NCBI GenBank assembly: GCA_021836725.1
Contig: JAKBHL010000011.1
Coordinates: 94,494 to 158,493 of the forward strand
Direction of reading: 5' to 3'
Length of the DNA stretch: 64,000 nucleotides
Source: a bacterium
GTDB lineage: Bacteria; Patescibacteriota; Minisyncoccia; Phycocordibacterales; Phycocordibacteraceae
Shown: piece by piece, positions 2,197 through 44,788 of the stretch
Layout: the number at the start of each line of letters is the position of its first letter
Numbering within the stretch: position 1 is the stretch's first letter
Notes under the pieces: model-generated
Database searches by the model: none
What the model was told of the DNA's origin: nothing
Seen by the model: only the letters and a program-made list of their open reading frames with translations
Made by a program: the position numbers and the translations under genes

Positions 2197-3045
2197 ATGA
2201 AATCCTATCGCCCCACCACCAAGAGCCGCCGCCACATGACCACACTGCCGTACCGGGAGCTTCTCTCGGGCGATGCGCCGCACAAGCCGTTGATGAGAAA
2301 GAAGAAACGCCAAGGTGGCCGAAACGGTTTCGGACGCATTACGACGCGCCACCAGGGCGGCGGTCACAAGCGCCGTTTGCGGGACGTAGACTTTATCTAC
2401 GACAAGAAAGATATTCCGGCGAAAATCGAAACCGTCGAGTATGATCCTTTCCGTTCCGCTTTCATCGGACTCGCACTCTATCGCGACGGCGCGCGCCGCT
2501 ACGTCGTCCTTCCCAAGGAGCTCGGAGTCGGTTCCTCCTTTATCGTCTCGGAACACGCGCCGCTTACGCTCGGGAATCGTCTCCCGCTCGGCAAAATCCC
2601 CGTCGGCACCCTTGTGTACAACGTCGAGCTTTCTCCGGGCGCGGGCGCCGTGCTCGCCCGTTCCGCCGGGAACGCCGCCGAAGTGGTCGCGCATGACGGG
2701 GGATATGCCCAGCTGAAGCTTCCTTCAAGCGAAATCCGCAAGGTATCTGATCTCGCGTGGGCGAGCATCGGAATGGTAGGCAACGAAGAATACAATCTCG
2801 TCGTCATCGGCAAAGCGGGGCGTAGCCGCTGGATGGGCATCCGTCCGACCGTCCGTGGAACCGCCATGAACCCGGTCGACCATCCTCATGGCGGCGGCGA
2901 AGGCAAACAAGGCCGCGGTCTCAAGCGCGCAAAGACCATGTGGGGGAAACCCTCCGGCAAGGGTCAGAAGACGCGAACGCCGAAAAAGTACTCGAACAAT
3001 CTCATCATTTCCCGCAGGAAAGTCGGCAAGAAACGCAAAGGATAA
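2197..3045 (+). CDS. rplB: 50S ribosomal protein L2 (alternative upstream ATG at 2179)
   Basis: MKSYRPTTKSRRHMT... and NPVDHPHGGGEGK motif diagnostic of L2. Confidence 0.95.
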   Translation: MKSYRPTTKSRRHMTTLPYRELLSGDAPHKPLMRKKKRQGGRNGFGRITTRHQGGGHKRRLRDVDFIYDKKDIPAKIETVEYDPFRSAFIGLALYRDGARRYVVLPKELGVGSSFIVSEHAPLTLGNRLPLGKIPVGTLVYNVELSPGAGAVLARSAGNAAEVVAHDGGYAQLKLPSSEIRKVSDLAWASIGMVGNEEYNLVVIGKAGRSRWMGIRPTVRGTAMNPVDHPHGGGEGKQGRGLKRAKTMWGKPSGKGQKTRTPKKYSNNLIISRRKVGKKRKG

Positions 3046-3057
3046 TGGTTCCGCTCA

Positions 3058-3089
3058 CAACAGCCCCGCACGAAAGTGCGGGGCTGTTG
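3058..3089. terminator. 14-bp perfect stem with GAAA tetraloop immediately after rplB (no U-tract)
   Basis: CAACAGCCCCGCAC-GAAA-GTGCGGGGCTGTTG seen directly in sequence. Confidence 0.55.
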
Positions 3090-3092
3090 CCA

Positions 3093-3445
3093 GAACCCAT
3101 CTCAATCTCCCAAGATGACATCTTGAAGACGCTATCTCACTTTGAATTAGGAAACTCCATTTGCGACACGCTCCTCGCTTCCTGCGACTCGTCGCTCTGT
3201 CCTTGCGCTCTCGTTTTTGGCTCGCAAAGCGCGTAGTATAGCCAAAAAACACCAAGCTCAGCGCCTTGCGGACGGTCGCAAATGGAGTTTCCTAATTCAA
3301 AGTATCTCAAACCCCCCGCGAGGGATATGCGGCAGAAAGAGGCTTACGGAGCGTGACGACGCGAGTACGAGCCGCTTTTTGAGCACAAAAAGACGGCGTA
3401 CTCCTTTCTGCAGCATACCCGAGCGGGGAAGTTTGAGACGGGTTC
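3093..3445. mobile_element. MITE-like palindromic repeat, copy 1 (composite: core element plus nested ~30-nt inverted repeats at 3138-3168/3280-3310 and small palindrome CAAGATGACATCTTG)
   Basis: Termini GAACCCATCTCAA ... GTTTGAGACGGGTTC; core GGATATGCGGCAGAAAGAGGCTTACGGAGCG...GAGTACGAGCCGCTTTTTGAGCACAAAAAGACGGCGTACTCCTTTCTGCAGCATACC shared with 6 other loci. Confidence 0.75.
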
Positions 3446-4185
3446 TAGCGGTAGTGCGGATTCAGGATAGCTCCGAGGGTAGCGAGAGGGATGCGGAGCG
3501 TCTGGGGGCCAAGGGCATACGGAGCGACCTGGTACGGGTCGAAGAGGATATCGAGATAGCCGTTATCGATGAAGAAATTTTCGAAATTCTTCGCTTCGGG
3601 CGTCGTACCGCGCGTAATGAAGCCCGTGTCGGCATTTTTCCCTATGACGCCCGGGAGCTCTGCACGGCTGATTGCGGAAAGGGTGTCCAGATACGTTGCA
3701 TTCGGCGCGAAGAGATCGGCGAGCGTGAGTTTCGCGCCCGTTGAAGTGTCAAAGGTGAACGTGTGGAAAAACAGATTTCCGTGCGCGCCGAGCGTGTTTT
3801 CATAGACGGTAAAGATGTATGACACCGTGTGCGGCGAAGATGAGACGAGATATTTGATCTGTAGCGTTTGCTTCGCGCCGCCCGGCGGATATGCGGCATT
3901 CCCTCCGGTTTTGAACTGGGAAATCACGCCGCCGATGTAGCTTTGTATGCGTGCGATGGCTTTTCCGTTCGCTCCGCTTGCAAGGGGGGTGGTAGTCGGG
4001 TAATTCGCGGCAATAACATACTCTGGCGACTGCTCCGTATAGGCTCCCGCAGGTAAAAGGACGGGTGTCTGCGTATCTGCCGCGCTCGTCGGCGCTTTCA
4101 CAGGCACCGGCCGCAGAGCGACATAGACGACGATCCCCGCAAGGACAACGCCGATGACCGTAATGCCAAAAATATCCTTTCGCAT
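3445..4185 (-). CDS. Membrane-anchored secreted protein, DUF3298/DUF4163 (RsiV-like) domain; inserted antisense within the ribosomal protein cluster
   Basis: N-terminal TM helix, C-terminal FDPYQVAPYALGPQTLRIP motif resembling DUF3298; reverse strand between rplB and rpsS. Confidence 0.6.
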   Translation of the reverse strand: MRKDIFGITVIGVVLAGIVVYVALRPVPVKAPTSAADTQTPVLLPAGAYTEQSPEYVIAANYPTTTPLASGANGKAIARIQSYIGGVISQFKTGGNAAYPPGGAKQTLQIKYLVSSSPHTVSYIFTVYENTLGAHGNLFFHTFTFDTSTGAKLTLADLFAPNATYLDTLSAISRAELPGVIGKNADTGFITRGTTPEAKNFENFFIDNGYLDILFDPYQVAPYALGPQTLRIPLATLGAILNPHYR

Positions 4186-4215
4186 ACGCTGTAGTGTAAC
4201 AAACTCGAGGCTCGT

Positions 4216-4244
4216 TTGACGATTCCCCGCCGCTCCTGTATCTT
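4216..4244 (+). promoter_or_regulatory. Sigma70-like promoter TTGACG-17-TATCTT upstream of rpsS
   Basis: Hexamers with 17-nt spacer ~40 nt upstream of rpsS ATG; needed because upstream operon continuity is broken. Confidence 0.4.
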
Positions 4245-4283
4245 TCAGGTACCTCGCGCTTGCGCGGGCTTTTCATTGCTTAC

Positions 4284-4622
4284 ATGGCACGCTCACTCAA
4301 AAAAGGACCTTTCGTGGACGCCAAGCTCCTGAAGAAGGTCAGCCACGTAAAACCGGCATCAGCCGGGGTTATTAACACGTGGGCGCGCAGGAGCCAGATA
4401 AGCCCGGAAATGGTCGGTTTTACTTTCGGCGTGCACAACGGCAAGCAGCACGTCGAGGTGCTCGTTTCCGAAGATATGGTGGGGCACCGCCTCGGCGAGT
4501 TCTCGCCGACCAAAAAATTCATCCGCCACGGCGGTAAAATGCAGAAAGAGATTGAGCAGAAGAAACAGCAGGCCGAGATTGCCGGAGCGAAAGCGGCAAA
4601 AGAATCCACTGCAAAGAAATAG
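4284..4622 (+). CDS. rpsS: 30S ribosomal protein S19 with K/E/A-rich C-terminal extension
   Basis: [12 protein letters not shown]...[18 protein letters not shown] typical S19. Confidence 0.93.
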
Positions 4623-4625
4623 TGT

Positions 4626-4946
4626 ATGGCATACGCAACTCTTGAAAGTCATAACCAATCGCCGCGCAAGATGCGGCTCGTTACGGATCTTGTGAAAGGG
4701 AAAAAAATTCCCGCCGCGCTTGCCGCGCTCCAATTTCTCCCGAAACGCGCCGCAGAACCTATCGCGAAGCTCATCAAGAGCGCGGCCGCAAACGCGAAGA
4801 GCCGGGGCGAGAATCCCGAAGAATTAACAGTGCGCTCGATAACCGTCGAGAGTGCCGGCACACTGAAGCGCTATATGCCCCGCGCCTTCGGCCGCGCTTC
4901 GCTCATCCGCCGCCGCAAAAGCCGCGTCAAGGTGACGCTCGCATAA
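4626..4946 (+). CDS. rplV: 50S ribosomal protein L22
   Basis: Position and SPRKMRLVTDLVKGK...KSRVKV pattern. Confidence 0.9.
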   Translation: MAYATLESHNQSPRKMRLVTDLVKGKKIPAALAALQFLPKRAAEPIAKLIKSAAANAKSRGENPEELTVRSITVESAGTLKRYMPRAFGRASLIRRRKSRVKVTLA

Positions 4947-4953
4947 ATTATTT

Positions 4954-5658
4954 ATGACGCACACCGTACATCCTTACGCCCATCGTCTCGGCATCATCCG
5001 GGACTGGAAGAGCCGCTGGTTTGCGCGCGATAAGCAGAGCTATCGCGAGAATATCAAGGTCGACGAGACTATCCGCCGGTTCCTTGCCAAGCGATTGCGC
5101 GGGACCTACACGAGCGGCATCGACATCGAGCGTTCGGAAAGCGAACTGCGCGTCATCCTTTCGACTTCGCGCCCGGGTCTCGTCATCGGCCGTTCGGGCG
5201 AGAATGCGACGAAATTGCGGAAAGAAATCTCCGAGACGATCCGCCGCGTGGCGCCCAAGGACCGCCGCACGCTCAAATTCGACATCAACGAAGTCCGCCA
5301 GCCGGAGACGGATGCCGCCGCGGTCGCGTACATGGTCGCGGAGGGGCTCGAAAAGCGAATGCCGTTCCGCCGCGTGTTGAAGCAAACGGTCGAGAAAGTC
5401 ATCGCGGCGCGCGAGGTCGAAGGGGTGCGCATCACGGTCTCCGGCAGGCTCGGCGGCGCGGAAATGAGCCGCAAAGAAGAGCTCAAGAAAGGCCGCATTC
5501 CGCTGCAGACGTTTCGCGCGGACATCGACTTCGCGCATGAAGTGGCGCATCTCCCGTACGGGATCATCGGCATCAAGGTATGGATCTATCGCGGGAACGT
5601 GTATCAGGACAAGAAGACGTCAGTGCGCCTGTCTTCGGGCGAACCGGCCCGCGGCTAG
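4954..5658 (+). CDS. rpsC: 30S ribosomal protein S3
   Basis: HPYAHRLGIIRDWKSRWF...KH domain, GIKVWIY C-terminal motif. Confidence 0.95.
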   Translation: MTHTVHPYAHRLGIIRDWKSRWFARDKQSYRENIKVDETIRRFLAKRLRGTYTSGIDIERSESELRVILSTSRPGLVIGRSGENATKLRKEISETIRRVAPKDRRTLKFDINEVRQPETDAAAVAYMVAEGLEKRMPFRRVLKQTVEKVIAAREVEGVRITVSGRLGGAEMSRKEELKKGRIPLQTFRADIDFAHEVAHLPYGIIGIKVWIYRGNVYQDKKTSVRLSSGEPARG

Positions 5659-5679
5659 TGCCCGGGTGTACATTTTCGT

Positions 5680-6102
5680 ATGTTATTTCCAAAAAAAGTA
5701 AAACACCGCAAATGGCAGACGCAGCGCAAAAGCGCGAAGCGCTTGAGCCGTCCCGATACCCGCGGTACGACCATCGTCTTCGGTTCATTCGCCCTGAAAG
5801 CGCTCACGAGCGCGCGCATGACGAGCAACCAGATAGAAGCGGCGCGCAAAGTTCTTACCCGTGCGACCGCAAAGACAGGCAAGCTCTGGATCCGTATCTT
5901 TCCGGACCGGCCGGTGACCGCCAAGCCCGCGGAAGTGGGCATGGGAAGCGGCAAGGGCGACCCGAAGCACTACGTGTTTGAAGTGCGCCCGGGGCGCATA
6001 CTTTTTGAAATGGACGGCGTCGCCGAAAGCATCGCGCGCGCGCATTTGCGCCAGGCGAGCATGAAGTTGCCGGTCAAGACCTCGATAATCACGCGGCACT
6101 AA
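5680..6102 (+). CDS. rplP: 50S ribosomal protein L16
   Basis: MLFPKKVKHRKWQ...MGSGKGDP typical L16. Confidence 0.95.
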   Translation: MLFPKKVKHRKWQTQRKSAKRLSRPDTRGTTIVFGSFALKALTSARMTSNQIEAARKVLTRATAKTGKLWIRIFPDRPVTAKPAEVGMGSGKGDPKHYVFEVRPGRILFEMDGVAESIARAHLRQASMKLPVKTSIITRH

Positions 6103-6125
6103 TTTTATTACTTTTTCATATTTTT

Positions 6126-6326
6126 ATGGTAAAAAAGAACACTATGACGACCAAAACGGATCAGGAGCTTGCGAAACTCCTTCTCGATACGCGCATCCAT
6201 CTGCGAACTGAGCGTTTTGCGGCTGCCGGCGCGCGCCCGAAAGATTCGAGCTCGCCGAAGAAGCTGCGCAAGACCATCGCACGCGCGCTTACCGAGCAGC
6301 ACGCGCGTGCGCATCGAACCGTCTAA
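6126..6326 (+). CDS. rpmC: 50S ribosomal protein L29
   Basis: Small helical protein TDQELAKLLLDTRIHLRTERF between rplP and rpsQ. Confidence 0.85.
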   Translation: MVKKNTMTTKTDQELAKLLLDTRIHLRTERFAAAGARPKDSSSPKKLRKTIARALTEQHARAHRTV

Positions 6327-6330
6327 TCAT

Positions 6331-6603
6331 ATGGAACACCGCGCCCCTCGTCCTCAATCGTTTGCCGGCGTCGTCGTAAAGACGGCCATGAAAGACACGG
6401 CCACGGTCCGCGTTGATCGCTTCGTGAAGCATCCGAAGTACAAAAAGTATTTCGTCCGCTCGAAGAAGTACCTTGCGCACGACCCGGGGAATACCGCTCA
6501 GGTCGGCGACAAAGTCACCATCGTCGCAACGCACCCGCTTTCGAAACTGAAGCATTTCGCAATCGCTCGCGCGAAAGACGCGTCCGTCGACGCGAAAAAC
6601 TAG
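6331..6603 (+). CDS. rpsQ: 30S ribosomal protein S17
   Basis: FAGVVVKTAMKDTATVRVDRFVKHPKYKKY typical S17; internal ATG at 6331 within longer ORF. Confidence 0.92.
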   Translation: MEHRAPRPQSFAGVVVKTAMKDTATVRVDRFVKHPKYKKYFVRSKKYLAHDPGNTAQVGDKVTIVATHPLSKLKHFAIARAKDASVDAKN

Positions 6604-6604
6604 T

Positions 6605-6982
6605 ATGTTGCAGCCCCAATCCATCGTCATGGTCGCAGATAATTCCGGCGGGAAGATCGCACGGGTATTCAAAGTGCTTGGCGGTTCCAAGCGCCGCTAC
6701 GCGCGCATCGGCGATACGGTCGTCATCGCCATCCAGACCGCCGAGCCGCGCAAAGCGGTGAAGAAAAAGGACATCTGCCGCGCGGTCGTCGTGCGGCAGA
6801 CGAAGCCTTTCGCCAGGAAAGACGGTTCGTACATACGTTTCGATGAGAATGCAGTCGTCATCGTCGAGAAGCAGGGCAAGGAAATGGCCCCGAAAGGGAA
6901 CCGGATCTTCGGCCCCGTTCCGCGCGAACTTTCCGAGCGCGGCTGGCACTCTATCGTCTCCTTGGCGCCCGAAGTCGTCTAA
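6605..6982 (+). CDS. rplN: 50S ribosomal protein L14
   Basis: [17 protein letters not shown]... typical L14. Confidence 0.95.
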
Positions 6983-6992
6983 TCATTTTCGT

Positions 6993-7223
6993 ATGCACGT
7001 CAAAAAAGGAGACAAAGTGAGGATAATTTCGGGCAAGGACAAGGGCGCGACCGGCGTCATCCTGCGCGCATTGCCGCGGGAAGACATGGTCGTCGTCGAA
7101 GGCGTCGCCATCGCGAAGCGCCACCGCAAGGGTCGTCCGGGCGAAGTGGGCCACATTGCCGAGCGCCCGCGGCCGATTCACGTGTCGAATGTCGTGCGCG
7201 TCGAATCAGCCAAAGGAAAATAA
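6993..7223 (+). CDS. rplX: 50S ribosomal protein L24
   Basis: [26 protein letters not shown] motif. Confidence 0.92.
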
Positions 7224-7230
7224 ATTGCCT

Positions 7231-7782
7231 ATGTCCATAACCAAACAAAGACAGCAGACCGCCTATCTCGCGCTCAAAGAAACATTCGGGTATACGAGCC
7301 CGATGCGGAGTCCGCGCGTGAGCAAGGTCATCGTCTCCTCAGGCGTGGGCAAGAAACGCGACAAGAAACAGCTCGAGCTCATCGAGGATCGTCTCGCGAA
7401 GATTACCGGGCAGAAACCCTCGCAGCGCGCTGCGCGCATCTCCATCGCTTCCTTCAAAGTGCGCGCAGGCGACACCGTCGGGCTTCAGGTGACGCTGCGC
7501 GGCGCGCGGATGTACGATTTTCTCGACAAGCTCATCCACATCGCGTTGCCGCGCACGCGCGATTTCCGCGGCCTTGCCCCAAACGCCATCGATGCGATGG
7601 GCAATATCACCATCGGCATCAAGGAGCATACTATTTTCCCGGAGACGAGCGATGAGGATCTGAAAGACGTTTTCGGTCTCGCCATAACCATCGTCACCAC
7701 CGCCTCGACCAAGGCCGAAGCCGAGGCGTTCCTGCGCCACCTCGGGTTGCCGCTTATCGTTGACTCGGGCGTAAAACGCTGA
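7231..7782 (+). CDS. rplE: 50S ribosomal protein L5
   Basis: Conserved L5 core, operon position. Confidence 0.93.
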   Translation: MSITKQRQQTAYLALKETFGYTSPMRSPRVSKVIVSSGVGKKRDKKQLELIEDRLAKITGQKPSQRAARISIASFKVRAGDTVGLQVTLRGARMYDFLDKLIHIALPRTRDFRGLAPNAIDAMGNITIGIKEHTIFPETSDEDLKDVFGLAITIVTTASTKAEAEAFLRHLGLPLIVDSGVKR

Positions 7783-7818
7783 TACTCTGGAGCGACGCTC
7801 CTCGGAGCTTTATTTTTT

Positions 7819-8088
7819 GTGGCAAAAAAATCCCAGCTGGCACGGTACGCCAAAAAGGCGAAACTCGTAAAGAAGTACGCGGTCAAGCGTGCGGCTTTGA
7901 AGCTCTCTGGCGATTTTGAGGGCCTCCAAAAGCTCCCGAGAAACTCTTCGCCGGTGCGCCTTAAGAACCGTTGCGCTATTTCGGGCCGTTCGCGCGGCTA
8001 TATGCGCGTCTTCGGACTCTCGCGCATCCAGTTCCGCGAGCTCGCGCGCGAAGGGAAGATCCCGGGCGTCAAAAAAGCATCATGGTAA
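7819..8088 (+). CDS. rpsN: 30S ribosomal protein S14
   Basis: [26 protein letters not shown] typical S14. Confidence 0.9.
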
Positions 8089-8486
8089 GCGACCGCGTCG
8101 GCGATTTCATCATCCGTCTGCAAAATGCCGCGCGCATCGGGAAGCGCGACGTCGGCGTGCCGTATTCCGGGCATCTTTTCGCTATCGCTAAAAAACTGAA
8201 GGAACTCGGTTTCCTTACCGCGGTCGAAGTGAAAACGAAAGAGGGCGAAGGCGTAAAGAAGCTGTTTACCGCGACGCTCGCTTACGACGAGCGCGGGCTC
8301 CCGAAATTGCGCGGCGTGAAGCGCGTGAGCAAACCGGGCCGCCGGCTCTATGCGGCGCATACATCTGCGCATCGGGTGAAAGGCGGCACCGGCGCGCGCA
8401 TCCTTTCTTCCTCGAGCGGTATCGTCTCCGACAGAGAGGCGCGCAAGAATAAGGTCGGCGGCGAAGAGCTTTTCGAAATCTGGTAA
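8082..8486 (+). CDS. rpsH: 30S ribosomal protein S8
   Basis: [16 protein letters not shown]... typical S8 N-terminus; overlaps rpsN stop. Confidence 0.92.
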
Positions 8487-8499
8487 TACAGACACCACC

Positions 8500-9030
8500 A
8501 TGAGCCGCCTCGCAAAAAAGCCGATAGCGATAGGGAAAACCGCAGTCCTCGTGGAGGGCGGGGTACTTTCCGTGAAAGGCGCCAAGGGCGCGCTTACCAA
8601 ACGCATACACCCGGCGGTCGCCATTGCGGTCGATGAGAACGGCGTCTCGATCACGCCGAAAGACCGTTCGCGCCTCGCCAAGGCGCTCACCGGCACGTTC
8701 GCTTCGCATGTGAAAAACATGATGGCCGGCGTCGAGACGCCCTACGTGAAGAAACTCATTCTCGAAGGCGTCGGCTATCGTGTCGAAGTCAAAGGAAGCG
8801 ATATCGTCTTGTCCGTCGGTTTCTCCCACACGGTCGCGCTCAAGATACCGGCGGATGTCTCGGCAACAGTCGAAAAGAACGTTATAAAAATCGAAAGCAT
8901 AAACAAAGAGTCGCTCGGACAATTTGCGGCGGACATACGGCGCGTGAAGCCGCCCGAACCGTACCTGGGGAAGGGCATCCGTTACGAAGGAGAAGTGATC
9001 CGCCGCAAACAAGGCAAGAAAGCCGCTTAA
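8500..9030 (+). CDS. rplF: 50S ribosomal protein L6
   Basis: MSRLAKKPIAIG...KGIRYEGEVIRRK typical L6. Confidence 0.93.
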   Translation: MSRLAKKPIAIGKTAVLVEGGVLSVKGAKGALTKRIHPAVAIAVDENGVSITPKDRSRLAKALTGTFASHVKNMMAGVETPYVKKLILEGVGYRVEVKGSDIVLSVGFSHTVALKIPADVSATVEKNVIKIESINKESLGQFAADIRRVKPPEPYLGKGIRYEGEVIRRKQGKKAA

Positions 9031-9033
9031 TTT

Positions 9034-9390
9034 TTGCATATGACTCACGGATCAAAAACGAATACGGAACTGCGGGCGCGCCGCCGCACTCGCATCCGAG
9101 CGCTTGTCAAAGGGACCGCGGCGCGCCCGCGTCTCGCGGTCTTCAAGAGCAATCGCTTCGTCTCAGCGCAGCTTATTGACGACGTGGCAGGAAAGACCAT
9201 CGCCGCCGCGCACGGACGCGAGTTCAAGGGCGCGCAATCCCTACAGGCGGCATCGGTCGGCGAAGCGATCGCACGAAAAGCTCGGGCAACCGGTATCACC
9301 ACGATCGTCTTCGATCGCGGCGGCTACCGTTATGGCGGACAGGTTAAGGCGCTCGCGGACGCAGCGCGGGCGGGCGGACTCATTTTTTAA
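9034..9390 (+). CDS. rplR: 50S ribosomal protein L18
   Basis: RPRLAVFKSNRFVSAQLIDD ... GGYRYGG typical L18. Confidence 0.92.
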   Translation: MHMTHGSKTNTELRARRRTRIRALVKGTAARPRLAVFKSNRFVSAQLIDDVAGKTIAAAHGREFKGAQSLQAASVGEAIARKARATGITTIVFDRGGYRYGGQVKALADAARAGGLIF

Positions 9391-9393
9391 TTT

Positions 9394-10080
9394 ATGATCG
9401 ACGATACACAGTTGTCACAGGAGCAGGAAACGGAGCAGTCGGCGGACGCCGCAGTGTCCGCGGCGGAGAGCCCGATCGAGACGGATGCCTCGGCTGTCGA
9501 GGACGTATCCGTCGCCGTTTCTGGAGAACCGGCGCCTGCCGCGCTCGCGCGCCCCGAACGAGGCGGCAGGGGGCCGGTGCGCTCGCGCGCTCCGCGCGGC
9601 GGGGCGCGCGCCCGCGCTCCGCGCGAGCGCGGCGAGTTTGAGCAAGTCACCATAGACGCGCGCCGCGTCGCGCGCGTGATGGCGGGCGGCCGCCGTTTCA
9701 GCTTCAGTCTCGTGGTCATCATCGGCGACAAAAAAGGCCGCGTGGGCGTGGGGCTTGGGAAAGGGGTCGATACGGCGCTTGCCATAGACAAAGCGACGCG
9801 CGACGCGAAGAAGCATCTCTTTACGATCGCGCGCACGGCTTCGGGCTCGATCCCGCATCAGGTAGAGGCCAAGTACGCTTCTTCCACGGTCGAGATCATC
9901 CCTTCAAAAGGCCGCGGGATCGTCGCGGGTTCGGCGATGCGCACCGTGCTCGAGCTCGGCGGCGTCACCGACGTCGTGGCGAAAATACACACGCGTTCGA
10001 AAAACAAGCTCACCATCTCGCGCGCGACGGTCGCCGCGCTCAAGAAATTGCGCTTGCCCGAGCGGACAAGCGCACAATAA
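9394..10080 (+). CDS. rpsE: 30S ribosomal protein S5 with ~85-aa acidic/Arg-rich N-terminal extension
   Basis: Core RVARVMAGGRRFSFSLVVIIGDKKGRVGVGLGKG matches S5; rplO starts 12 nt after its stop so no rpmD (L30) gene is present. Confidence 0.92.
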   Translation: MIDDTQLSQEQETEQSADAAVSAAESPIETDASAVEDVSVAVSGEPAPAALARPERGGRGPVRSRAPRGGARARAPRERGEFEQVTIDARRVARVMAGGRRFSFSLVVIIGDKKGRVGVGLGKGVDTALAIDKATRDAKKHLFTIARTASGSIPHQVEAKYASSTVEIIPSKGRGIVAGSAMRTVLELGGVTDVVAKIHTRSKNKLTISRATVAALKKLRLPERTSAQ

Positions 10081-10091
10081 AATATCTTCCT

Positions 10092-10544
10092 ATGCAGCTC
10101 AATTCACTCGTCCCGCGCGCAAAACGCCGTTTGTCCGTAGCGGTCGGTCGCGGCGGCAAGCGCGGCAAGACCAGCGGTCATGGCGGAAAAGGGCAGACCG
10201 CGCGCGCCGGGCACAAAATCCGGCCCGAGGTGCGCGATCTCATAAAAAAGCTCCCGAAACGCCGCGGCCACGGCAAGAATCGTTCGCGCACGGTACGGAC
10301 GAACCAATACGGCGTTTCAGCGGTAAATATCGCAGCGCTCGAAACCGCGTATAATGCCGGAGAGACGGTCTCGCCCGCTTCACTGCTTGCAAAGGGGCTC
10401 GTGCGGCGCGCCAAAGGGCGCGCGCCCGCGGTGAAGATACTCGGCACCGGCGCGCTCACGAAAGCGCTTACGGTCAAAAACTGCACGCTTTCTGCCACCG
10501 CCCGTGCCGCCATCCTCGGGGCCGGCGGCACACACAATGCTTAA
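10092..10544 (+). CDS. rplO: 50S ribosomal protein L15
   Basis: GRGGKRGKTSGHGGKGQTARAGH typical L15. Confidence 0.93.
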   Translation: MQLNSLVPRAKRRLSVAVGRGGKRGKTSGHGGKGQTARAGHKIRPEVRDLIKKLPKRRGHGKNRSRTVRTNQYGVSAVNIAALETAYNAGETVSPASLLAKGLVRRAKGRAPAVKILGTGALTKALTVKNCTLSATARAAILGAGGTHNA

Positions 10545-11811
10545 TTCTTTCACTCACAAGCTCAAACTCGCGTTCGGCGACTCGGAGATACGGCACCGCA
10601 TCCTGTTCCTTGCGGCGGCTCTCGCGCTTTTCCGTTTGCTTGCCGCAGTGCCGATTCCGGGAGTCAACAAGGCCGCGCTCGCCGCGTTCTTTGCGAACAA
10701 CCAATTTTTCGGCCTCCTGAACATCTTTTCGGGCGGCGGCCTTTCCCAGCTCTCGATAGTCATGCTTGGCGTGGGCCCCTACATCACCGCCTCGATAATC
10801 ATGCAGCTCGGCACCATCATATTCCCGCAGGTGAAACAGGCGTACTTTGAAGAAGGGGAAGCGGGCCGCGCGAAGTTCATCGAATGGAGCCGTCTTCTCA
10901 CCGTTCCCATCGCTATTTTGCAGGCCGTCGGTTTCTTGTTTCTTCTTGAGAGCCAGGGCGTCATAGCGCATTTGGGTTCCGTATCGCTCATCGCGAACAT
11001 AACGCTCGTCGCGGCTGGTTCCATGCTCCTCATGTGGATCGGCGAGCTCGTGACCGAATTCGGCATCGGCAACGGCGTTTCGCTCATCATTCTCGCCGGC
11101 ATCCTTTCGCGCGTGCCCGCCGGCATTTCCGAGACCATTTTTGCTTCTACCGCTGCGAATATCCCCAGCTATCTCGCATTCCTCGTTCTTGCTCTCGCGA
11201 TGATCTACGCGGTCGTCGTCGTCTCCGATGCCGAGCGCTCGATACCGATTGCCTATGCGCGGCAGGTGCGCGGCGCGGCGCTCGCTCAAGGCGCGGCGAC
11301 GTACCTCCCCATCCGTCTCCTGCAGGCCGGCGTGATCCCCATCATCTTCGCTCTCTCGCTCCTGCTTCTGCCGCAGATGGCGCTTTCGATGCTCGGGGCC
11401 GCGCATGTCTCGTTCGCCTCGGGCGCGGCGCTTTGGTATACCGCTTTCCTCTCCAATCCGTGGAAGTACGGCGCCGTGTATTTCACGCTCGTCGTGCTCT
11501 TTACCTACTTCTACACCGCGGTTACTTTCGAGCCGCACCGCGTCGCGGAGGATCTCCAAAAAACCGGAGCGTTCGTCCCCGGAGTGCGCCCCGGCCGCGA
11601 GACCGAGGAATACATCGGAAAGGTGGTCAACCGCGTTACGCTTCCGGGCGCCGCTTTCCTCGGCCTTCTCGCAGTGGCTCCCTCGATCATCCAAGGGCTT
11701 ACCGGCATTACGACGCTGGTGTTGGGAGGCACGGCGCTTCTCATCGCGGTGCAGGTGGCGCTTGATCTGGCGCAAAAGATCGACGCACAAGTTTCGCTTC
11801 GGGAATACTGA
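10537..11811 (+). CDS. secY: Preprotein translocase SecY
   Basis: 10 TM helices, conserved SecY motifs (GIGNGVSLIIL); follows rplO. Confidence 0.93.
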   Translation: MLNSFTHKLKLAFGDSEIRHRILFLAAALALFRLLAAVPIPGVNKAALAAFFANNQFFGLLNIFSGGGLSQLSIVMLGVGPYITASIIMQLGTIIFPQVKQAYFEEGEAGRAKFIEWSRLLTVPIAILQAVGFLFLLESQGVIAHLGSVSLIANITLVAAGSMLLMWIGELVTEFGIGNGVSLIILAGILSRVPAGISETIFASTAANIPSYLAFLVLALAMIYAVVVVSDAERSIPIAYARQVRGAALAQGAATYLPIRLLQAGVIPIIFALSLLLLPQMALSMLGAAHVSFASGAALWYTAFLSNPWKYGAVYFTLVVLFTYFYTAVTFEPHRVAEDLQKTGAFVPGVRPGRETEEYIGKVVNRVTLPGAAFLGLLAVAPSIIQGLTGITTLVLGGTALLIAVQVALDLAQKIDAQVSLREY

Positions 11812-11835
11812 AACTAAAAATGCTAGAGTGGACGG

Positions 11836-12462
11836 ATGGATACGCACTCCAAGGATACTCTCGCGAAAGGACGTGAAGGGGCGCATACCGTTTTCTTCAT
11901 CGGGAAACCGGGTTGTGGCAAGGGCACGCAAGCGAAGCTGCTCTCGCAAGCGACCGGCTGGGCGATCATTTCTGCCGGTCAGCAGTTTCGAGACATAGCC
12001 GCTCTCGATACCAGGGTTGGCCGGAAAATCAAGTCTGAGATAGAGGCCGGATTTCTCGCGCCGCATTGGTTCGCGATGTATCTTTTTCAGAAGGCGCTTT
12101 TTGCGCTTCCGGACGGCGCGAGCGCCATCTTTGACGGGTTCAATCGCAAACTGCCCGAAGCCGAACTCATTCTCGAATCCCTTTCGTGGCTCGAGCGGCC
12201 GTTCCTGATTTTCGATATCCGTATATCCGATGAAGAAGTGCATCGCCGTCTCATGGGCCGCAGAGAAACCGAAGGCCGGCATGACGATGCCGTCGTTAGC
12301 GAACGATTGAAAGAATATTACGCACACACCGAAGCGGCGGTGGAAACGTTTCGAAGAGCGGGCGTGCTCATCGACATACAAGGTGAGCAGCCGCCGGAGC
12401 AGGTTGCAAGCGATATTCGCGCGGCACTCGCTCACGCACCTTCGCAGACACACCCGGCATGA
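11836..12462 (+). CDS. adk: Adenylate kinase (short, no zinc lid)
   Basis: P-loop GKPGCGKGTQ, position after secY. Confidence 0.9.
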   Translation: MDTHSKDTLAKGREGAHTVFFIGKPGCGKGTQAKLLSQATGWAIISAGQQFRDIAALDTRVGRKIKSEIEAGFLAPHWFAMYLFQKALFALPDGASAIFDGFNRKLPEAELILESLSWLERPFLIFDIRISDEEVHRRLMGRRETEGRHDDAVVSERLKEYYAHTEAAVETFRRAGVLIDIQGEQPPEQVASDIRAALAHAPSQTHPA

Positions 12463-13223
12463 TACTCCGGAACGATACCGAACGGGCGAATCTTATCGAA
12501 GCGGGGAAACGCCTCGCGACAGTGCTTCGCGCGCTCCGCGTCGCCGTCGCCCCCGGAGTGACATCTGAAGAACTAGACGACAAAGCGGAAGAGCTCATAC
12601 GCGCGGGCGCTGATGAGCCGGTGTTCCTCGGCTATACGCCCGAAGGCGCGCATCGCCCGTACCCGGCGACGCTCTGCGTCTCGATAAACGACGAAGTCGT
12701 GCATGGCATCCCGAATGAATCGAAAAAAATCCTGAAGCAAGGGGATATCGTCGGACTCGATCTCGGTCTCGCGCATGAGGGCATCATCGTCGATGCGGCA
12801 ATCACCGTACCGGTCGGGCACGTAGATGACGAGGCGAAACGGCTCCTGTACGCGACCGAGGAGGCGCTCAAAGCCGGAATCGAGCGTGCTGTCATCGGAA
12901 ATCATATCGGCGATATCTCGCACGCCATCGCGGAGACGATCGAGAGCGCGGGTTTCAAGGTCGTGAAATCCCTCGGCGGGCACGGCGTCGGCGATCGTGT
13001 GCACGAAGAACCTTTCATCCCCAACTATGGGCGCGCGGGAACAGGACCGGTACTGGAGGAAGGCATGGTGCTCGCGCTCGAACCGATTTCAAGCGCCGGC
13101 AAGGCGGCGGTCATCCTCGCTCCGGACGGATACACGTACAAAACCAAAGACGGATCCCGCTCCGCGCACTTCGAGCACACCATCTTGATTGAAAAGGACG
13201 GACCGCGTATCATTACCGGATAA
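12459..13223 (+). CDS. map: Methionine aminopeptidase type I
   Basis: Pita-bread fold motifs (HGIP, DIVGLDLG, GGHGVG, ALEP). Confidence 0.92.
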   Translation: MILRNDTERANLIEAGKRLATVLRALRVAVAPGVTSEELDDKAEELIRAGADEPVFLGYTPEGAHRPYPATLCVSINDEVVHGIPNESKKILKQGDIVGLDLGLAHEGIIVDAAITVPVGHVDDEAKRLLYATEEALKAGIERAVIGNHIGDISHAIAETIESAGFKVVKSLGGHGVGDRVHEEPFIPNYGRAGTGPVLEEGMVLALEPISSAGKAAVILAPDGYTYKTKDGSRSAHFEHTILIEKDGPRIITG

Positions 13224-13252
13224 CCGCTCCGCGGCTATTTATTTTTGAAATT

Positions 13253-13837
13253 ATGGCACACAAGAATCCGAAGGAAGAACGCACGTACGTGATGATAAAG
13301 CCCGACGGAGTGAAAAAGGGGCTGGTCGGCGAGATTATCAAGCGTTTCGAGCAGCGCGATCTCAAGATCGTCGCTCTCGAGATGTTTCAGCCGACGTTCG
13401 AGCAGATCGATACGCATTATCCGAAAGATGCCGCGTGGGTGAAGCGCCTCGGCGAGAAGACGCTCGCTACCTATGAAAAGTATCAGTTTGATGCGATGGA
13501 GGATTTCGGTACGGCCGCTCCCGAAGAGATCGGCCCTGAAATACGGAAATGGCTCGTCGATTACATGCTCTCCGCTCCTCTCGTGAAGATGGTGGTCGAA
13601 GGCACGCACGCGGTCGACATGGTGCGTAAGATCTGCGGCCCGACGATGCCGTATCAAGCCGATATGGGCACCATCCGCGGAGATTTTTCCAATGATTCCC
13701 CCGCCATCGCGAACGCCGAGAAACGCGCGGTCGCGAACATCGTTCACGCGTCCGAGACGCCCGAGGAAGCGGCGCACGAGATTGAGCACTGGTTCGGGAA
13801 GAGCACCCTCCACCGCTACAAACGGCACGGCGATTAG
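13253..13837 (+). CDS. ndk: Nucleoside diphosphate kinase with ~45-aa internal insertion
   Basis: ERTYVMIKPDGV and NIVHASE (active-site His) motifs; 194 aa vs ~140 typical. Confidence 0.85.
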   Translation: MAHKNPKEERTYVMIKPDGVKKGLVGEIIKRFEQRDLKIVALEMFQPTFEQIDTHYPKDAAWVKRLGEKTLATYEKYQFDAMEDFGTAAPEEIGPEIRKWLVDYMLSAPLVKMVVEGTHAVDMVRKICGPTMPYQADMGTIRGDFSNDSPAIANAEKRAVANIVHASETPEEAAHEIEHWFGKSTLHRYKRHGD

Positions 13838-14213: not shown

Positions 14214-15605
14214 ATGTCATTGCGGCTGAGTTTTTATGGCGGCGCAGGGAAAGTCACCGGATCGAATTTTTTAATTGAAGGGGCGCGCGGAAGGATTCTC
14301 GTCGATTGCGGGATCGAGCAGGGCGCCGACTTCTGTGCGGCAGACATGTACGGGCCGTTTCCCTATGATGTAAAGGCAATTGACGCGCTTGTTCTCACGC
14401 ACGCGCATCTCGATCACGTCGGGCGCGTGCCAAAACTCGTTCGGAGCGGCTTCCGCGGAAGGATTTTCATGACACCGCCCACGAAAGATATAGCCGAGCT
14501 CATTTTGCGCGATTCGGTCAGCATTCTTCGTCAGGATGCTAAGCGCCGCGGAGCCGAACCACTCTACGAGGAACGGGATGTCGACGCGACGTTCGCGCTC
14601 ATCGAGACGCTTGAGTATCATACGGAAAAAGAAATCGCGCCCGGGCTCACCGTTTATTTGCGCGGCACGGGCCATATCCTCGGCTCCTCGAGCGTCCGCA
14701 TCAAGGATGAAGATGGAACCGCGATCGCGCTTACCGGCGATATCGGCAATTCGCCCTCTCCTCTCCTTCCTGATTGGGAGCCGGTGCCGGACGCCGATGC
14801 GCTTGTCATGGAGAGCGTCTATGGCGACCGGCTTCATCCGCCGCATAGGGAACGCGTAGCGCTTCTGCGCGATACGCTCAAACGCGCCATCGGCAAAGGC
14901 GGCGCGGTGCTCATTCCCGCCTTTTCGCTCGAACGTACGCAGCTCATGCTCTATGAACTCTCCAATTTCTTCGCGGCGGGCGAACTTCCGAAAGTGCCCG
15001 TGTTCCTCGATTCGCCGCTCGCTATCCGTGTGACGGAAGTGTATGAGAAATGGGGACCGACCTATTTCAAGAACGCCGCCGAGGAGGAGATGAAGAGAGA
15101 AAAGAGCCTTTTTGAATTTCCGTTTCTGACTAAGACGTTCTCATCCGCACAGTCGCGGGAGATAGAAAAAACGCAAAATCCCAAAATAATCATCGCCGGA
15201 GCAGGGATGAGTCACGGCGGCCGTATCGGCCTCTGGGAGGCGAAATACCTTCCCGATCCATCCACGACCCTCCTCATCGTCGGGTATCAGGCCCCGGGAA
15301 GTCCGGGGCGGCGCATGGCGGAAGGCGCGTCCTCGGTGCGTCTGAATGGCCGCGCCGTGCGTCTGCGGGCAAAAGTGGAAATCCTCGAAGGGTGGTCAGC
15401 GCACGCCGATCGCGATGAACTTCTCAAGTTTGCCGAAACGGCCCTTTCAGAGAAGCGCACAAAAGTTATTTTCACGGCCATCGGCGAGCCTTCCGCCGAG
15501 CGCTTCCTTGCGCAACGCATTCACGACTATCTCGGCGGGCGCGCCGTTGTCCCGGAGGCAGGGGAGGTATGGGACATTGCCAAAGATTCCGTAAAGAAAG
15601 TCTAA
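14214..15605 (+). CDS. MBL-fold beta-CASP family ribonuclease/hydrolase (RNA-metabolising metallo-beta-lactamase, COG1236-like)
   Basis: HAHLDHVG motif, beta-CASP-like central region, C-terminal HADRDEL motif. Confidence 0.75.
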   Translation: MSLRLSFYGGAGKVTGSNFLIEGARGRILVDCGIEQGADFCAADMYGPFPYDVKAIDALVLTHAHLDHVGRVPKLVRSGFRGRIFMTPPTKDIAELILRDSVSILRQDAKRRGAEPLYEERDVDATFALIETLEYHTEKEIAPGLTVYLRGTGHILGSSSVRIKDEDGTAIALTGDIGNSPSPLLPDWEPVPDADALVMESVYGDRLHPPHRERVALLRDTLKRAIGKGGAVLIPAFSLERTQLMLYELSNFFAAGELPKVPVFLDSPLAIRVTEVYEKWGPTYFKNAAEEEMKREKSLFEFPFLTKTFSSAQSREIEKTQNPKIIIAGAGMSHGGRIGLWEAKYLPDPSTTLLIVGYQAPGSPGRRMAEGASSVRLNGRAVRLRAKVEILEGWSAHADRDELLKFAETALSEKRTKVIFTAIGEPSAERFLAQRIHDYLGGRAVVPEAGEVWDIAKDSVKKV

Positions 15606-18775: not shown

Positions 18776-18925
18776 AACCCATCTCAAAACCCCCGCTCGG
18801 GTATGCGGCAGAAAGGAGTACGCCGTCTTTTTCTGCTCTAAAAGCAGCTCGAACTTACGCCGTCGCGCTCCATAAGCCTCTTTCTGCCGCATACCTCTCG
18901 CGGGGATATAAGGTTTTGAAATGAT
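18775..18925. mobile_element. MITE-like palindromic repeat, copy 3 (opposite orientation of core)
   Basis: Starts at the TAG stop of the upstream gene (TAGAACCCATCTCAAAACCCCC); right end GGTTTTGAAATGAT. Confidence 0.8.
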
Positions 18926-19622: not shown

Positions 19623-20192
19623 ATGCCGCCCGAGATGACCGATGAAGAAATCGTCCGCCGGACACTGCTCGACAAGGAAGCATTTACGCCCCTCATCGAA
19701 CGGTATGAAGCGAAACTCACGCGTTATCTCGAACGGCTAGGGGTCGGCGTCCGCGAAGATCGTGAAGACATCCTGCAGAATGCCTTTATCAAGGCATACA
19801 GGAACCTCAACAGTTTCGATCAGACGCTCGCATTTTCCTCGTGGATGTACCGCATCGCGCATAATGAGGCGATGAGTTTCTTCCGCTCCCGGCATGCGCG
19901 TCCGCAGGTGGTGCTCGACGAGGGGAGCGAAACGCTCCTTACGGAATTGCGGGATGAGGATTCGGATACGGCGCATCTTGCGGAGCTCCGGCTCTCGCGC
20001 GAGGAACTCGCAAAGGCGTTCACGGCGCTTACGCCCGTGCAGCGAGACGTCCTCACGCTCCGTTTTTTTGAAGATCGGTCATATGCCGAGATATCCGATA
20101 TCCTTGAAGTGCCGACGGGGACGGTCTCAACGCTCCTGTATCGCGCTAAACGGGCTCTGCGCGAAGCGCTTCCTGAACCATTTTCACTATGA
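19623..20192 (+). CDS. ECF-type RNA polymerase sigma-70 factor
   Basis: Region 2 (SWMYRIAHNEAMSFFR) and region 4 (SYAEISDILEVPTGTVSTLLYRAKRAL) motifs. Confidence 0.88.
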   Translation: MPPEMTDEEIVRRTLLDKEAFTPLIERYEAKLTRYLERLGVGVREDREDILQNAFIKAYRNLNSFDQTLAFSSWMYRIAHNEAMSFFRSRHARPQVVLDEGSETLLTELRDEDSDTAHLAELRLSREELAKAFTALTPVQRDVLTLRFFEDRSYAEISDILEVPTGTVSTLLYRAKRALREALPEPFSL

Positions 20193-21070
20193 TGCACGAC
20201 GAACAAAAAGACGACCAGCTCGCTCGAAAGGTGCTCGAACGCATCAGCGGCGAACATCTCGTTCCGCGCCCGCGCTGGGAATTCATATTCAAGAATTATT
20301 TTTTCTGGATATTCGGCGCGTTCGCGGTCGCGCTGAGCGCTCTCGCATTTTCCGCGATGCTCTTCGATATCCAGAACGTCGACTGGCGTCTCTCAGCCGC
20401 TACGCACGCGAACTTCCTTGCTTTCTTCCTTGAGGCGGCACCCTTCCTCTGGGCAGGCGCTCTCATACTTTTCATACTCGTCGGCTACGCGAATGTGCGC
20501 CGGACGGCGCACGGCTATCGTTACTCACTCGCCGTTATCGCGCTCGGCGCGGTGCTCGCTTCTCTGGTGCTGGGCAGCGCCCTTTACGCGAGCGGTCTTG
20601 GCGGCGAGATCGAGGAAGCGATTGGCGACCATCCGCCCTTCTACCGTCCTATTCTTGTTGAAGAGCGCTCCTGGTGGCTTGCGCCGGAAAAAGGCCTCTT
20701 AGGCGGACGCGTAATCTCGCTTGCGCCGGATAACGCTTCCTTCGCACTCCGCGACTTCAAGGGGCATCTGTGGCAGGTCGAAACCGGCGACTTGCGCAAT
20801 GCCGATTTTACAGCCGTGCTGCGCGGCGGCATCGTCCGTATCGTCGGCGTACCGGTGGCGGCGACCAGTTCAACTTTCCATGCCTGTTTCGTATTTCCCT
20901 GGGAGATCCGGTATGGTTTTTTCGGCAATTTTTTCCACGCGCCGTCCATGCCGCGCCCGCCGCTGTCCGCGTCCACCAGTGAAAGGAGCATCACGACGCC
21001 GCGCAGCGAACTCTGCAAGGGCATCCGCCCCTACCGGCAGCTTCGTAGCATCGACGAGACCCGCTTCTAG
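20189..21070 (+). CDS. Putative membrane anti-sigma factor (ATGA overlap with sigma gene); C-terminus runs into MITE copy 4
   Basis: Cotranscribed with ECF sigma, 3-4 TM helices; the last ~60 aa are low-complexity and lie immediately upstream of the MITE, whose first bases give the TAG stop. Confidence 0.55.
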   Translation: MMHDEQKDDQLARKVLERISGEHLVPRPRWEFIFKNYFFWIFGAFAVALSALAFSAMLFDIQNVDWRLSAATHANFLAFFLEAAPFLWAGALILFILVGYANVRRTAHGYRYSLAVIALGAVLASLVLGSALYASGLGGEIEEAIGDHPPFYRPILVEERSWWLAPEKGLLGGRVISLAPDNASFALRDFKGHLWQVETGDLRNADFTAVLRGGIVRIVGVPVAATSSTFHACFVFPWEIRYGFFGNFFHAPSMPRPPLSASTSERSITTPRSELCKGIRPYRQLRSIDETRF

Positions 21071-26341: not shown

Positions 26342-26523
26342 AACCCATTTCAAACCCCATCTTCTCCTAAGATGTCATCTTAGGAGATTTGACCGGCCTC
26401 CGCGAGAGGTATGCGGCAGAAAGAGGCTTACGGAGCGTGACGACGCGAGTACGAGCCGCTTTTTGAGCACAAAAAGACGGCGTACTCCTTTCTGCCGCAT
26501 ACCCGAGCGGGGGTTTTCTGTCC
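26341..26523. mobile_element. MITE-like palindromic repeat, copy 6 (with nested 40-nt palindrome CTCCTAAGATGTCATCTTAGGAG)
   Basis: AAACCCATTTCAAACCCC left end overlapping the TAA stop of the upstream gene; right end abuts stop of MFS gene on the other strand. Confidence 0.8.
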
Positions 26524-44332: not shown

Positions 44333-44788
44333 ATGTACAAAAATCGTTCTCAAGGTTTCACCCTCATCGAACTTCTCGTCGTGATCGCCATCATCGGCAT
44401 CCTCTCGGCGGTCGTGCTCGCTTCGCTCAACACCGCCCGCCAGAAAGGCAACGATGCCGCCATCCAATCCGACCTCTCGACCATCCAGACTCAGGCCGAG
44501 ATCTACTACGGCGGCGCGGGCAACAACAGCTACGGAACAGTGGCCGGTAGCGCTTGCAATACGGCAAGTACGCTCTTTGCCGATGCGACGATCATAAAAG
44601 CGGTCAATGGCGCTCAGAATGCTGCTGGCACCTCCAATCCGCTTGTCTGTGGTAATTCCACTTCGGCCTATGCGGTTGAAGCGAAACTCACCGCTCCGGC
44701 GACAGCGACGTACTGGTGCGTCGACTCGACCGGCACCGCGAAGCAGGAGACTACGGCATCTGCCGCCGGCTTCACGGTCTGTCCGTAA
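44333..44788 (+). CDS. Type IV pilin (major pilin candidate), paralog 1
   Basis: QGFTLIELLVVIAIIGILSAVVLASLNTARQKG N-terminus. Confidence 0.88.
   Translation: MYKNRSQGFTLIELLVVIAIIGILSAVVLASLNTARQKGNDAAIQSDLSTIQTQAEIYYGGAGNNSYGTVAGSACNTASTLFADATIIKAVNGAQNAAGTSNPLVCGNSTSAYAVEAKLTAPATATYWCVDSTGTAKQETTASAAGFTVCP

Follow-up and report, generated by a model that had tools for sequence, protein, structure and literature searches.

Few prokaryotic gene orders are as well conserved as that of the S10–spc ribosomal protein cluster, and the 16-protein marker sets used to place bacteria of the Candidate Phyla Radiation (CPR) in the tree rest on it. Here, we analyze an opening in that order in a 64,000-nucleotide (nt) stretch of contig JAKBHL010000011.1 from a CPR bacterium; the whole stretch is called the window below. 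Specifically, rplB ends at position 3045 and the rpsS start codon lies at 4284, leaving a 1238-nt spacer. We judge it probable, at roughly three chances in four, that this rplB–rpsS split reflects an old, clade-wide division by which Paceibacteria-type CPR bacteria transcribe the S10–spc cluster as two units. An original prediction, made from the letters of the window, had recognized the 1.2-kilobase (kb) separation and had attributed it to interruption of the operon by a miniature inverted-repeat transposable element (MITE) and an antisense gene. The separation is real and is reproduced across independent assemblies. The interruption does not hold: relatives are split without the repeat and with differing genes in the gap, and comparison of synteny reveals the same arrangement without the MITE, as an old lineage trait.

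Our comparison set consists of the 80 closest species-representative rplB loci, from Paceibacteria-type CPR bacteria (Kaiser-, Nomura-, and Taylorbacteria). The window rplB matches metagenome-assembled genomes of Patescibacteria/CPR labelled Paceibacterota, Kaiserbacteria, Nomurabacteria, and Taylorbacteria, the best match being 98% identical. Among the 60 relatives that hold both genes, the rplB–rpsS gap exceeds 150 nt in 52. The gap is at most 150 nt in 8 of the 60, 151–500 nt in 4, 0.5–1.5 kb in 30, and more than 1.5 kb in 18; another 13 loci show no rpsS in the stretch of at least 1 kb that follows rplB. On a neighbour-joining rplB tree, the loci with adjacent genes are nested among split relatives, which argues that the split is ancestral for the sample and that the gap has occasionally closed again. 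Loci L008, L020, L021, L027, and others carry rplB, a terminator, and a convergent DUF3298 gene, followed by a promoter and rpsS, all without the repeat element. In many relatives, the intervening opposite-strand genes span several kilobases. Our literature search found no report that the S10 operon is split in CPR bacteria or Parcubacteria, or that a conserved rplB–rpsS opening in CPR bacteria carries a leader of its own.

The right-hand border of the gap is marked by a promoter and a short structured leader. Counting the window, 52 of 61 loci have a TTGAC promoter followed by a hairpin ahead of rpsS. The detector that yields this count responds to 39 of 1220 dinucleotide shuffles (3.2%), to 20 of 1143 random 200-nt windows of the same loci (1.7%), and to 1 of 61 reverse complements. 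Among loci, the −10-like element takes the forms TATCTT, TACATT, and TGcTAGTAT, and the geometry is narrow: the hairpin starts 36–37 nt past the T of TTGAC in 43 of the 52 loci, and the hairpin and the ATG are 11–18 nt apart in 41. The leader stem-loop, of 5–8 base pairs (bp), starts within 1–3 nt of the predicted transcription start and is followed by a U-rich tail ending in ATTG. Seventeen distinct stem sequences occur, all of which pair (for example, CTCGCG/CGCGGG, CCCGC/GCGGG, GAGCTC/GAGCTT, ACCCC/GGGGT, and AAACGCC/GGCGTTT). The loops vary in sequence and in length, and only the 3′ tail, ...ATTG, is conserved. The rpsS leader is, in short, a conserved structured 5′ untranslated region of a ribosomal protein (r-protein) operon, and no obvious Shine–Dalgarno motif is present in the rpsS mRNA.

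Because the promoter is conserved across lineages that carry different cargo in the gap, it did not arise de novo in this genome. By this comparison, it was in place before the high-GC Kaiserbacteria-like and the low-GC Nomurabacteria-like lineages diverged. The TTGACG-17-TATCTT element of the original prediction is present in the window, with 9 of 12 hexamer positions matching, and only the de novo origin ascribed to it falls. It is very likely that a promoter of its own drives the rpsS-led block, with initiation of the rpsS–ndk unit predicted near 4251. Separate transcription of the downstream genes, also proposed originally, is well supported by the comparison, with a correction of the block from 20 genes to 19, all tightly packed and co-oriented. 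At three loci with a gap of 21–26 nt (L037, L040, and L072), TTGGAA-17-TATAGT overlaps the last rplB codons, and there is neither a terminator nor a leader hairpin; despite its adjacency to rplB, rpsS may have kept a promoter of its own at these loci.

Two other interpretations of these elements were rejected. The promoter–hairpin architecture is not a general feature of the genome: within the window, rpsS is its only convincing instance, and two other pattern matches look like chance. Nor is the hairpin at 4253–4268 a terminator for the DUF3298 gene, as it precedes the start of that gene and lacks a minus-strand U tract. The TTGAC...TGcTAGTAT promoter type, taken alone, does recur elsewhere in the loci of low-GC relatives. 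Rfam contains no match for the hairpins, the repeats, or the leader, with the window searched at gathering thresholds and positions 3000–4340 at permissive E-values.

The left-hand border of the gap is marked by a terminator-type hairpin. A hairpin of at least 8 bp, starting no more than 35 nt from the rplB stop codon, is present in 58 of the 80 relatives and at 0 of the 8 short-gap loci. Its usual form is an A-tract, a GC-rich stem, and a T-tract, which is the bidirectional intrinsic terminator type, as in ACAAAAAATACCC-gaaa-GGGTATTTTTTGT, and most examples have 5–7 U. The T tract is retained in most relatives and in sister species L007 and L089, which read CCCCGCAC-gaaa-GTGCGGGG and then CTTTTGTTT. 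In the window, the 14-bp GAAA-tetraloop hairpin of the original prediction is present, beginning 13 nt past the rplB stop, and its U tract is degraded (GGGGCUGUUGCC; CUGUUG): CCAGAACCC lies 3′ of the stem and CTGTTG lies inside the stem. The ancestral A and T tracts that flanked it are now CAACAG and CTGTTG. In repeat-free relatives, the DUF3298 stop codon is directly followed by the hairpin that is common to rplB. Because those relatives share the hairpin, we reconstruct the ancestral layout as rplB, a bidirectional terminator, a convergent DUF3298 gene, divergent promoters, and rpsS. In this genome, rpsJ–rplB transcripts would end at or near 3089, or within the very stable repeat hairpins that follow.

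We propose the following arrangement. The first unit, rpsJ–rplB, would end at the terminator-type hairpin just past the rplB stop. The second unit, rpsS–ndk (rpsS to rplO, secY, adk, map, and ndk), would start at the conserved sigma-70-type promoter, and its transcript would open with the short stem-loop, followed by the U-rich ...ATTG stretch that precedes the rpsS start codon. The space between the two operons would belong to neither unit and would tolerate insertions, and different lineages would fill it with different cargo. In the lineage of the window, the cargo would be an antisense DUF3298/MPT64-fold gene with its own −10 element; originally, this gene and rplB would have had one bidirectional terminator in common. 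A palindromic repeat would afterwards have landed exactly at the DUF3298 stop codon, and then, in this species only, a second element, called element A, would have nested inside the repeat. That the flanking signals are conserved independently of the cargo matches what two transcription units predict. Regarding the leader, we put at just short of even odds the notion that it acts as a 5′-terminal stabilizer combined with a translation-initiation module. The stabilizer role is favored because the structure is conserved and the sequence is not, because the hairpin sits at +1 to +3, and because the tail, as a U tract, falls far short of the clear terminators in the same genomes. With somewhat less confidence, we offer a tentative extension: the rplB–rpsS junction could be a maintained, insulated slot that repeatedly captures cargo and mobile repeats, and the leader could be a real regulatory RNA that acts on the rpsS–ndk operon through stability or autogenous feedback.

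Several points weigh against the two-unit proposal. Termination and initiation of the units are both deduced from sequence and conservation. The promoter hexamers taken alone occur at chance level (1 found versus 0.8 expected in the scan), so the significance of the promoter comes from its conservation. The list of leader stems was produced by a search that demanded pairing, such that the control rates, rather than a covariation score, carry the weight of that result. Applied to a MAFFT alignment of the leaders, RNAalifold returned no consensus structure, the two GC classes being misaligned. A pattern scan flags the leader hairpin and its tail as weak-terminator-like. The window hairpin at 3058–3089 lacks the U tract that defines an intrinsic terminator, and, given that loss, read-through from rplB into the repeats, antisense to DUF3298, is possible. 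Finally, the sample comprises only the 80 nearest rplB relatives, and the breadth given here for the split applies to these.

A serious rival concerns the leader: the hairpin and U-rich tail could be regulatory, serving as a promoter-proximal attenuator or as a binding site by which a downstream r-protein exerts autogenous control. A conserved, structured 5′ leader does precede an operon with 15 r-protein genes, and the weak-terminator-like call noted above fits attenuation. Moreover, with 11–18 nt between the hairpin and the ATG, a bound protein would occlude the ribosome. There is also precedent for a proposed leader of this kind within the S10 cluster: Alphaproteobacteria have a candidate L2 r-leader (Eckert & Weinberg 2020, PMC7247131). 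We nonetheless rate the regulatory reading as less likely than the stabilizer role, given that the variable loops and unconserved stem sequences argue against sequence-specific protein recognition; the leader loops display no conserved unpaired nucleotides that a protein could recognize. Furthermore, the tails (CUUUUCAUUG and AUUUAUAUUG) are far poorer U tracts than are the clear terminators of the same genomes (GGGUAUUUUUUGU), and the leader matches no Rfam family.

A less probable alternative is that the cluster is largely co-transcribed, the rplB hairpin serving only to stabilize or process RNA and the rpsS promoter being a supplementary internal one. Supplementary internal promoters exist in the large S10–spc–alpha cluster of Bacillus subtilis, the three short-gap loci with TTGGAA-17-TATAGT show an internal promoter without a split or a terminator, and the hairpin in the window has no U tract. 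However, read-through in the window would first meet 355 nt of palindromes of extreme stability and would then run for 740 nt antisense to a gene under selection; positions 3046–3450 fold at −199 kcal/mol, with z = −12.7 relative to shuffled sequence. In addition, the hairpin is a textbook terminator, with its run of U, in most relatives, and in many of them kilobases of opposite-strand genes would have to be traversed. We consider co-transcription improbable and retain the division into two units.

What fills the gap differs among lineages. The antisense DUF3298 gene is present at 13 species-level loci, which form one clade with the window on the rplB tree. A same-strand dgkA gene (Pfam DAGK_prokar, E=1e-28) occupies 26 low-GC loci (L038, L046, and L049–L084) of a separate, Nomurabacteria-like clade. 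Pfam also confirms a phosphoribosyltransferase (pyrE-like) gene and a PemK toxin as cargo; other pyr-type genes and very large surface proteins are named from sequence only. At locus L046, 4 nt separate the dgkA stop codon from the rpsS −35 element downstream of it, and the rpsS leader hairpin is the first hairpin past dgkA; it might double as the dgkA terminator.

The reverse-strand, DUF3298-like membrane protein gene of the original prediction is confirmed, with a match to Pfam PF11738 (E=1.3e-13, 52.1 bits) that clears the gathering threshold of 24.1. The closest solved relative of the protein is Mycobacterium tuberculosis MPT64 (PDB 2hhi, E=6.5e-6), and some of its 230 database homologs are named "RsiV family protein." Although similarity to MPT64/RsiV-type domains is present, the protein scores 32.3 bits against the RsiV equivalog NCBIfam NF052658, whose cut-off is 250, and 48 bits against the Rv3036c esterase model, whose cut-off is 200. 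It has a signal anchor only, and no anti-sigma N-terminal domain. The position and strand of the antisense gene are kept in 13 species-level relatives and 4 sister species, and comparison with four sister species gives a ratio of nonsynonymous to synonymous substitution rates (dN/dS) of 0.11–0.15 at dS 0.5–1.3. These values indicate that the gene is under purifying selection and functional. The Pfam match, the homologs, and dN/dS together reject a chance antisense open reading frame (ORF) in GC-rich DNA. Upstream of its start codon, at the place equivalent to TACACT in the window, relatives have TAGAAT, TAGTAT, or TACACT. TACACT is probably the gene's own promoter element, and its location suggests an mRNA that is leaderless or has a very short leader.

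Between rplB and the DUF3298 stop codon, the window contains the MITE copy with nested inverted repeats that the original prediction described, resolved here into a repeat at 3304–3448 and element A at 3139–3303. The repeat is a member of a small, non-coding family of about 150 nt. Seven copies, 60–97% identical, lie in the window, on the plus strand at 3313, 13862, 21091, and 26397 and on the minus strand at 18791, 21825, and 47278. For a small CPR genome, such a density of ~150-nt palindromic repeats (seven in 64 kb) is unusual. All seven are intergenic; three lie between convergent genes, and one lies immediately past ndk. The whole unit is an imperfect palindrome with terminal inverted repeats, and the outer arms GAACCCATCTCAAAACCCC and GGGGTTTTGAGATGGGTTC are found in several copies. 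There are two sub-variants (GGGTATGCGG... and GGGTGTGCG...), and the arms are self-complementary in each. The small palindrome module of 3093–3133 also occurs beside copy c4, at 26369–26389.

The repeats adjoin gene ends closely. In five copies, the stop codon of the neighboring gene abuts the repeat terminus (TAG followed by AACCCATCTCAAAAC); these neighbors are ndk, a flavin mononucleotide reductase gene, ORF 20189–21070, an HhH-GPD glycosylase gene, and the DUF3298 gene. The ndk stop codon (13835–13837) is itself the terminal TAG of copy c2, the terminal CTAG of copy 1 contains the DUF3298 stop codon, and copy c4 has, at its far, degraded end, a CTAG that includes the stop codon of a major facilitator superfamily gene. 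Repeat ends read (C/T)TAG, then AACCC...GGGTT, then CTAG. TA(G) or CTAG flanks several ends, and other ends have CAG or are degraded. We infer insertion into the TA of (C/T)TAG, in the manner of IS630/Tc1-type elements, with several ends imperfect. Two observations count against this route of arrival by transposition: the TA duplication is unclean at some ends, and no empty site for the family was found at the rplB–rpsS locus among the sister species. Every sister species (DUF3298 74–91% identical) has a copy at the same site; the orientation of this copy and its internal inserts vary. None of the 79 more distant relatives carries the family, whose core has no match in Joint Genome Institute (JGI) metagenomes or IMG/VR by exact-pattern scans, or in PLSDB by blastn.

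Element A is nested inside the repeat copy and is flanked by ATCTC direct repeats (3134–3138 and 3304–3308). Its arms have only these two occurrences in the window, with 0 expected by chance. Terminal inverted repeats, flanking direct repeats, and presence or absence among relatives fit a mobile element; multiple copies do not appear, as the window has a single copy and none was found in the relatives' loci, in JGI metagenomes or IMG/VR by exact-pattern scans, or in PLSDB by blastn. Element A is missing from all sister-species spacers, which makes its insertion the most recent event. A further short repeat class is present in this genome: at locus L001 (same species as the window; positions 11740–11870, upstream of tuf), several AAGGTTAAACCTTGTTA-like palindromic motifs flank a terminator-like hairpin between fusA and tuf.

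The distribution of these parts over the relatives gives the order of events. By this comparison, the split with its terminator and promoter/leader came first, at the class level, and capture of DUF3298 followed in a family-level clade. Insertion of the repeat at the DUF3298 stop codon came third, at the genus level, and nesting of element A fourth, at the species level. A recent insertion of the MITE and the antisense gene into a continuous S10–spc operon, with a de novo rescue promoter, would account for the recent, lineage-specific occurrence of the repeat copy and of element A and for the presence of promoter hexamers. Yet relatives with 74–88% rplB identity share the rplB/antisense DUF3298/rpsS layout without the repeat, the promoter and hairpin persist in lineages with other cargo, and the repeats sit between the pre-existing terminator and the DUF3298 stop codon rather than inside an operon. 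We regard the recent insertion as very improbable.

An assembly error, the other alternative named originally, is not in evidence. The 399-nt stretch from rplB to DUF3298 (3046–3444) is 100% identical across four assemblies from different samples; three of the four reach from rplB to rpsS with equal spacing, and the fourth contig stops short of rpsS. The exact DUF3298 protein is found on 22 contigs, and sister species share the layout. The related locus L007 (JAJYCP010000005.1, 5896–6025; rplB 98% identical) has its contig end inside the repeat, 179 nt past rplB, which indicates that short-read assemblies are broken by repeats amid the ribosomal marker cluster. That break speaks for a mis-join at the repeats, but against the identical stretches and the 22 contigs such a chimera is of negligible likelihood and is rejected.

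The features of the locus are collected in Table 1. At the left end of the upstream unit's final gene, the rplB start (MKSYRP, at 2197) agrees with that of relatives.

Table 1. Features in and around the rplB–rpsS spacer, in window coordinates
Feature	Position	Strand	Evidence
rplB (L2), final gene of the upstream unit rpsJ-rplC-rplD-rplW-rplB	2197–3045	+	Pfam Ribosomal_L2_N E=1e-26, L2_C E=3e-48
GC-rich 14-bp perfect stem with GAAA loop	3058–3089	+	Inverted-repeat analysis; homolog of the clade-wide rplB terminator
Displaced left outer repeat arm GAACCCATCTCAA (3093–3105) and small palindrome module CAAGATGaCATCTTG (3111–3125)	3093–3133	unassigned	Pairing with the right outer arm, 3427–3449
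Element A, 165 bp	3139–3303	unassigned	29-nt perfect inverted ends, 3139–3167 and 3275–3303
Copy 1 of the palindromic MITE-like repeat, core and right outer arm, ~145 nt	3304–3448	+	One of 7 copies in the window
Antisense DUF3298/MPT64-type gene, 246 amino acids, N-terminal hydrophobic membrane anchor	3445–4185	−	Pfam DUF3298
Putative −10-like TACACT, 7 nt 5′ of the DUF3298 ATG	4193–4198	−	Read from the sequence
Predicted rpsS promoter: −35 TTGACG (4216–4221), 17-nt spacer, −10 TATCTT (4239–4244)	4216–4244	+	Hexamers and conservation
rpsS leader: 6-bp stem-loop CTCGCG-cttg-CGCGGG (4253–4268), tail CTTTTCATTG (4269–4278), ATG 5 nt on	4253–4278	+	
Downstream unit rpsS, rplV, rpsC, rplP, rpmC, rpsQ, rplN, rplX, rplE, rpsN, rpsH, rplF, rplR, rpsE, rplO, secY, adk, map, ndk	4284–13837	+	

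The components of the locus have counterparts in known systems. In Escherichia coli, L4 attenuates transcription at the S10 leader, and S8 controls the spc operon. The rpsS leader resembles such r-protein operon leaders in being a conserved, structured 5′ leader, with a hairpin and a U-rich stretch, before a multi-gene r-protein operon. It is unlike them in its size (~30 nt), its position at the very 5′ end, its variable loop and stem, and its location upstream of rpsS rather than of rpsJ or rplB. Stem-loops that stabilize mRNA from the 5′ terminus are exemplified by the E. coli ompA 5′ hairpin and by the aprE/ermC-type elements of B. subtilis. Like these, the rpsS stem-loop lies near the (predicted) start and keeps its structure without keeping its sequence; unlike them, it is followed by a conserved ...ATTG tail that has no counterpart there, and its transcription start is a prediction only. 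A beta-CASP/RMMBL metallo-beta-lactamase RNase (RNase J/CPSF-like, 463 amino acids) is encoded at 14214–15605 (+), a few hundred nucleotides past the ribosomal block and beyond copy c2, and its presence in the window is relevant to the idea that a 5′ hairpin protects the mRNA.

The repeats, too, have relatives in kind. Correia elements of Neisseria and other MITEs of the IS630/Tc1-mariner type target TA, often within CTAG. The repeat family shares with them its length of about 150 bp, its non-coding nature, its terminal inverted repeats, its many intergenic copies at gene ends, its ends that fit a TA duplication, and its long hairpins, which could terminate or process RNA. It differs from them in its imperfect TA flanks, in having no empty site at this locus, and in an orientation that flips between sister species; no transposase partner came to light, although the ORFs of the window were not screened for one. 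Repetitive extragenic palindromes (REP) and bacterial interspersed mosaic elements (BIME) are enterobacterial intergenic palindromes with 35-nt units. Like them, the repeat is a modular, mosaic palindrome that occurs on the 3′ side of genes and operons and where genes converge, but its units are ~150 nt rather than 35 nt, its terminal CTAG overlaps stop codons, and no RAYT/TnpA-REP gene was noticed, transposase genes not having been screened for. Regarding gene order, Leptospira departs from the canonical S10–spc–alpha arrangement (PMC2481283). Both cases are lineage-specific, stably inherited changes to a highly conserved cluster. At the rplB–rpsS junction, in contrast, gene order is kept, and one junction has opened into a variable slot with conserved terminator and promoter flanks.

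Elsewhere in the window, two features deserve mention. At 53100–53500 (+), a tRNA-Met(CAT) gene is apparently split in the anticodon loop by a group I intron (Rfam RF00028, 53121–53460, 60 bits, E=9e-13), with the 5′ exon GCGGGGTAGAGGAGAGGTACCTCGGGAGGCTCAT and a 3′ exon ending in ...AACCTCCAGACGCCGGTTCGATTCCGGCCCCCGCA; ARAGORN does not call the split tRNA in this interval. In a type IV pilus/pseudopilin region, a 187-nt direct repeat, 98% identical, occupies 44354–44540 and 44841–45027 at a spacing of 487 nt, with a second pair at 44708 and 45195. A small gene seems to have been duplicated in tandem there recently.

Internal promoters, r-protein leaders, lineage-specific rearrangements of S10–spc, and MITE- or REP-like repeats at gene ends are all of known kinds. 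The mechanisms considered here are consequently familiar, and the locus is not a dramatic anomaly. For binning and annotation pipelines, a caution follows: contigs tend to break at the rplB–rpsS spot, where repeats accumulate. The leader supplies a candidate RNA motif that is absent from Rfam. Most broadly, a CPR class appears stably to split S10–spc at one junction, with a dedicated terminator on one side, a promoter and leader on the other, and the gap between them as a slot for variable genes. The split could provide a handle on how ribosomal gene expression is organized in uncultured CPR organisms.

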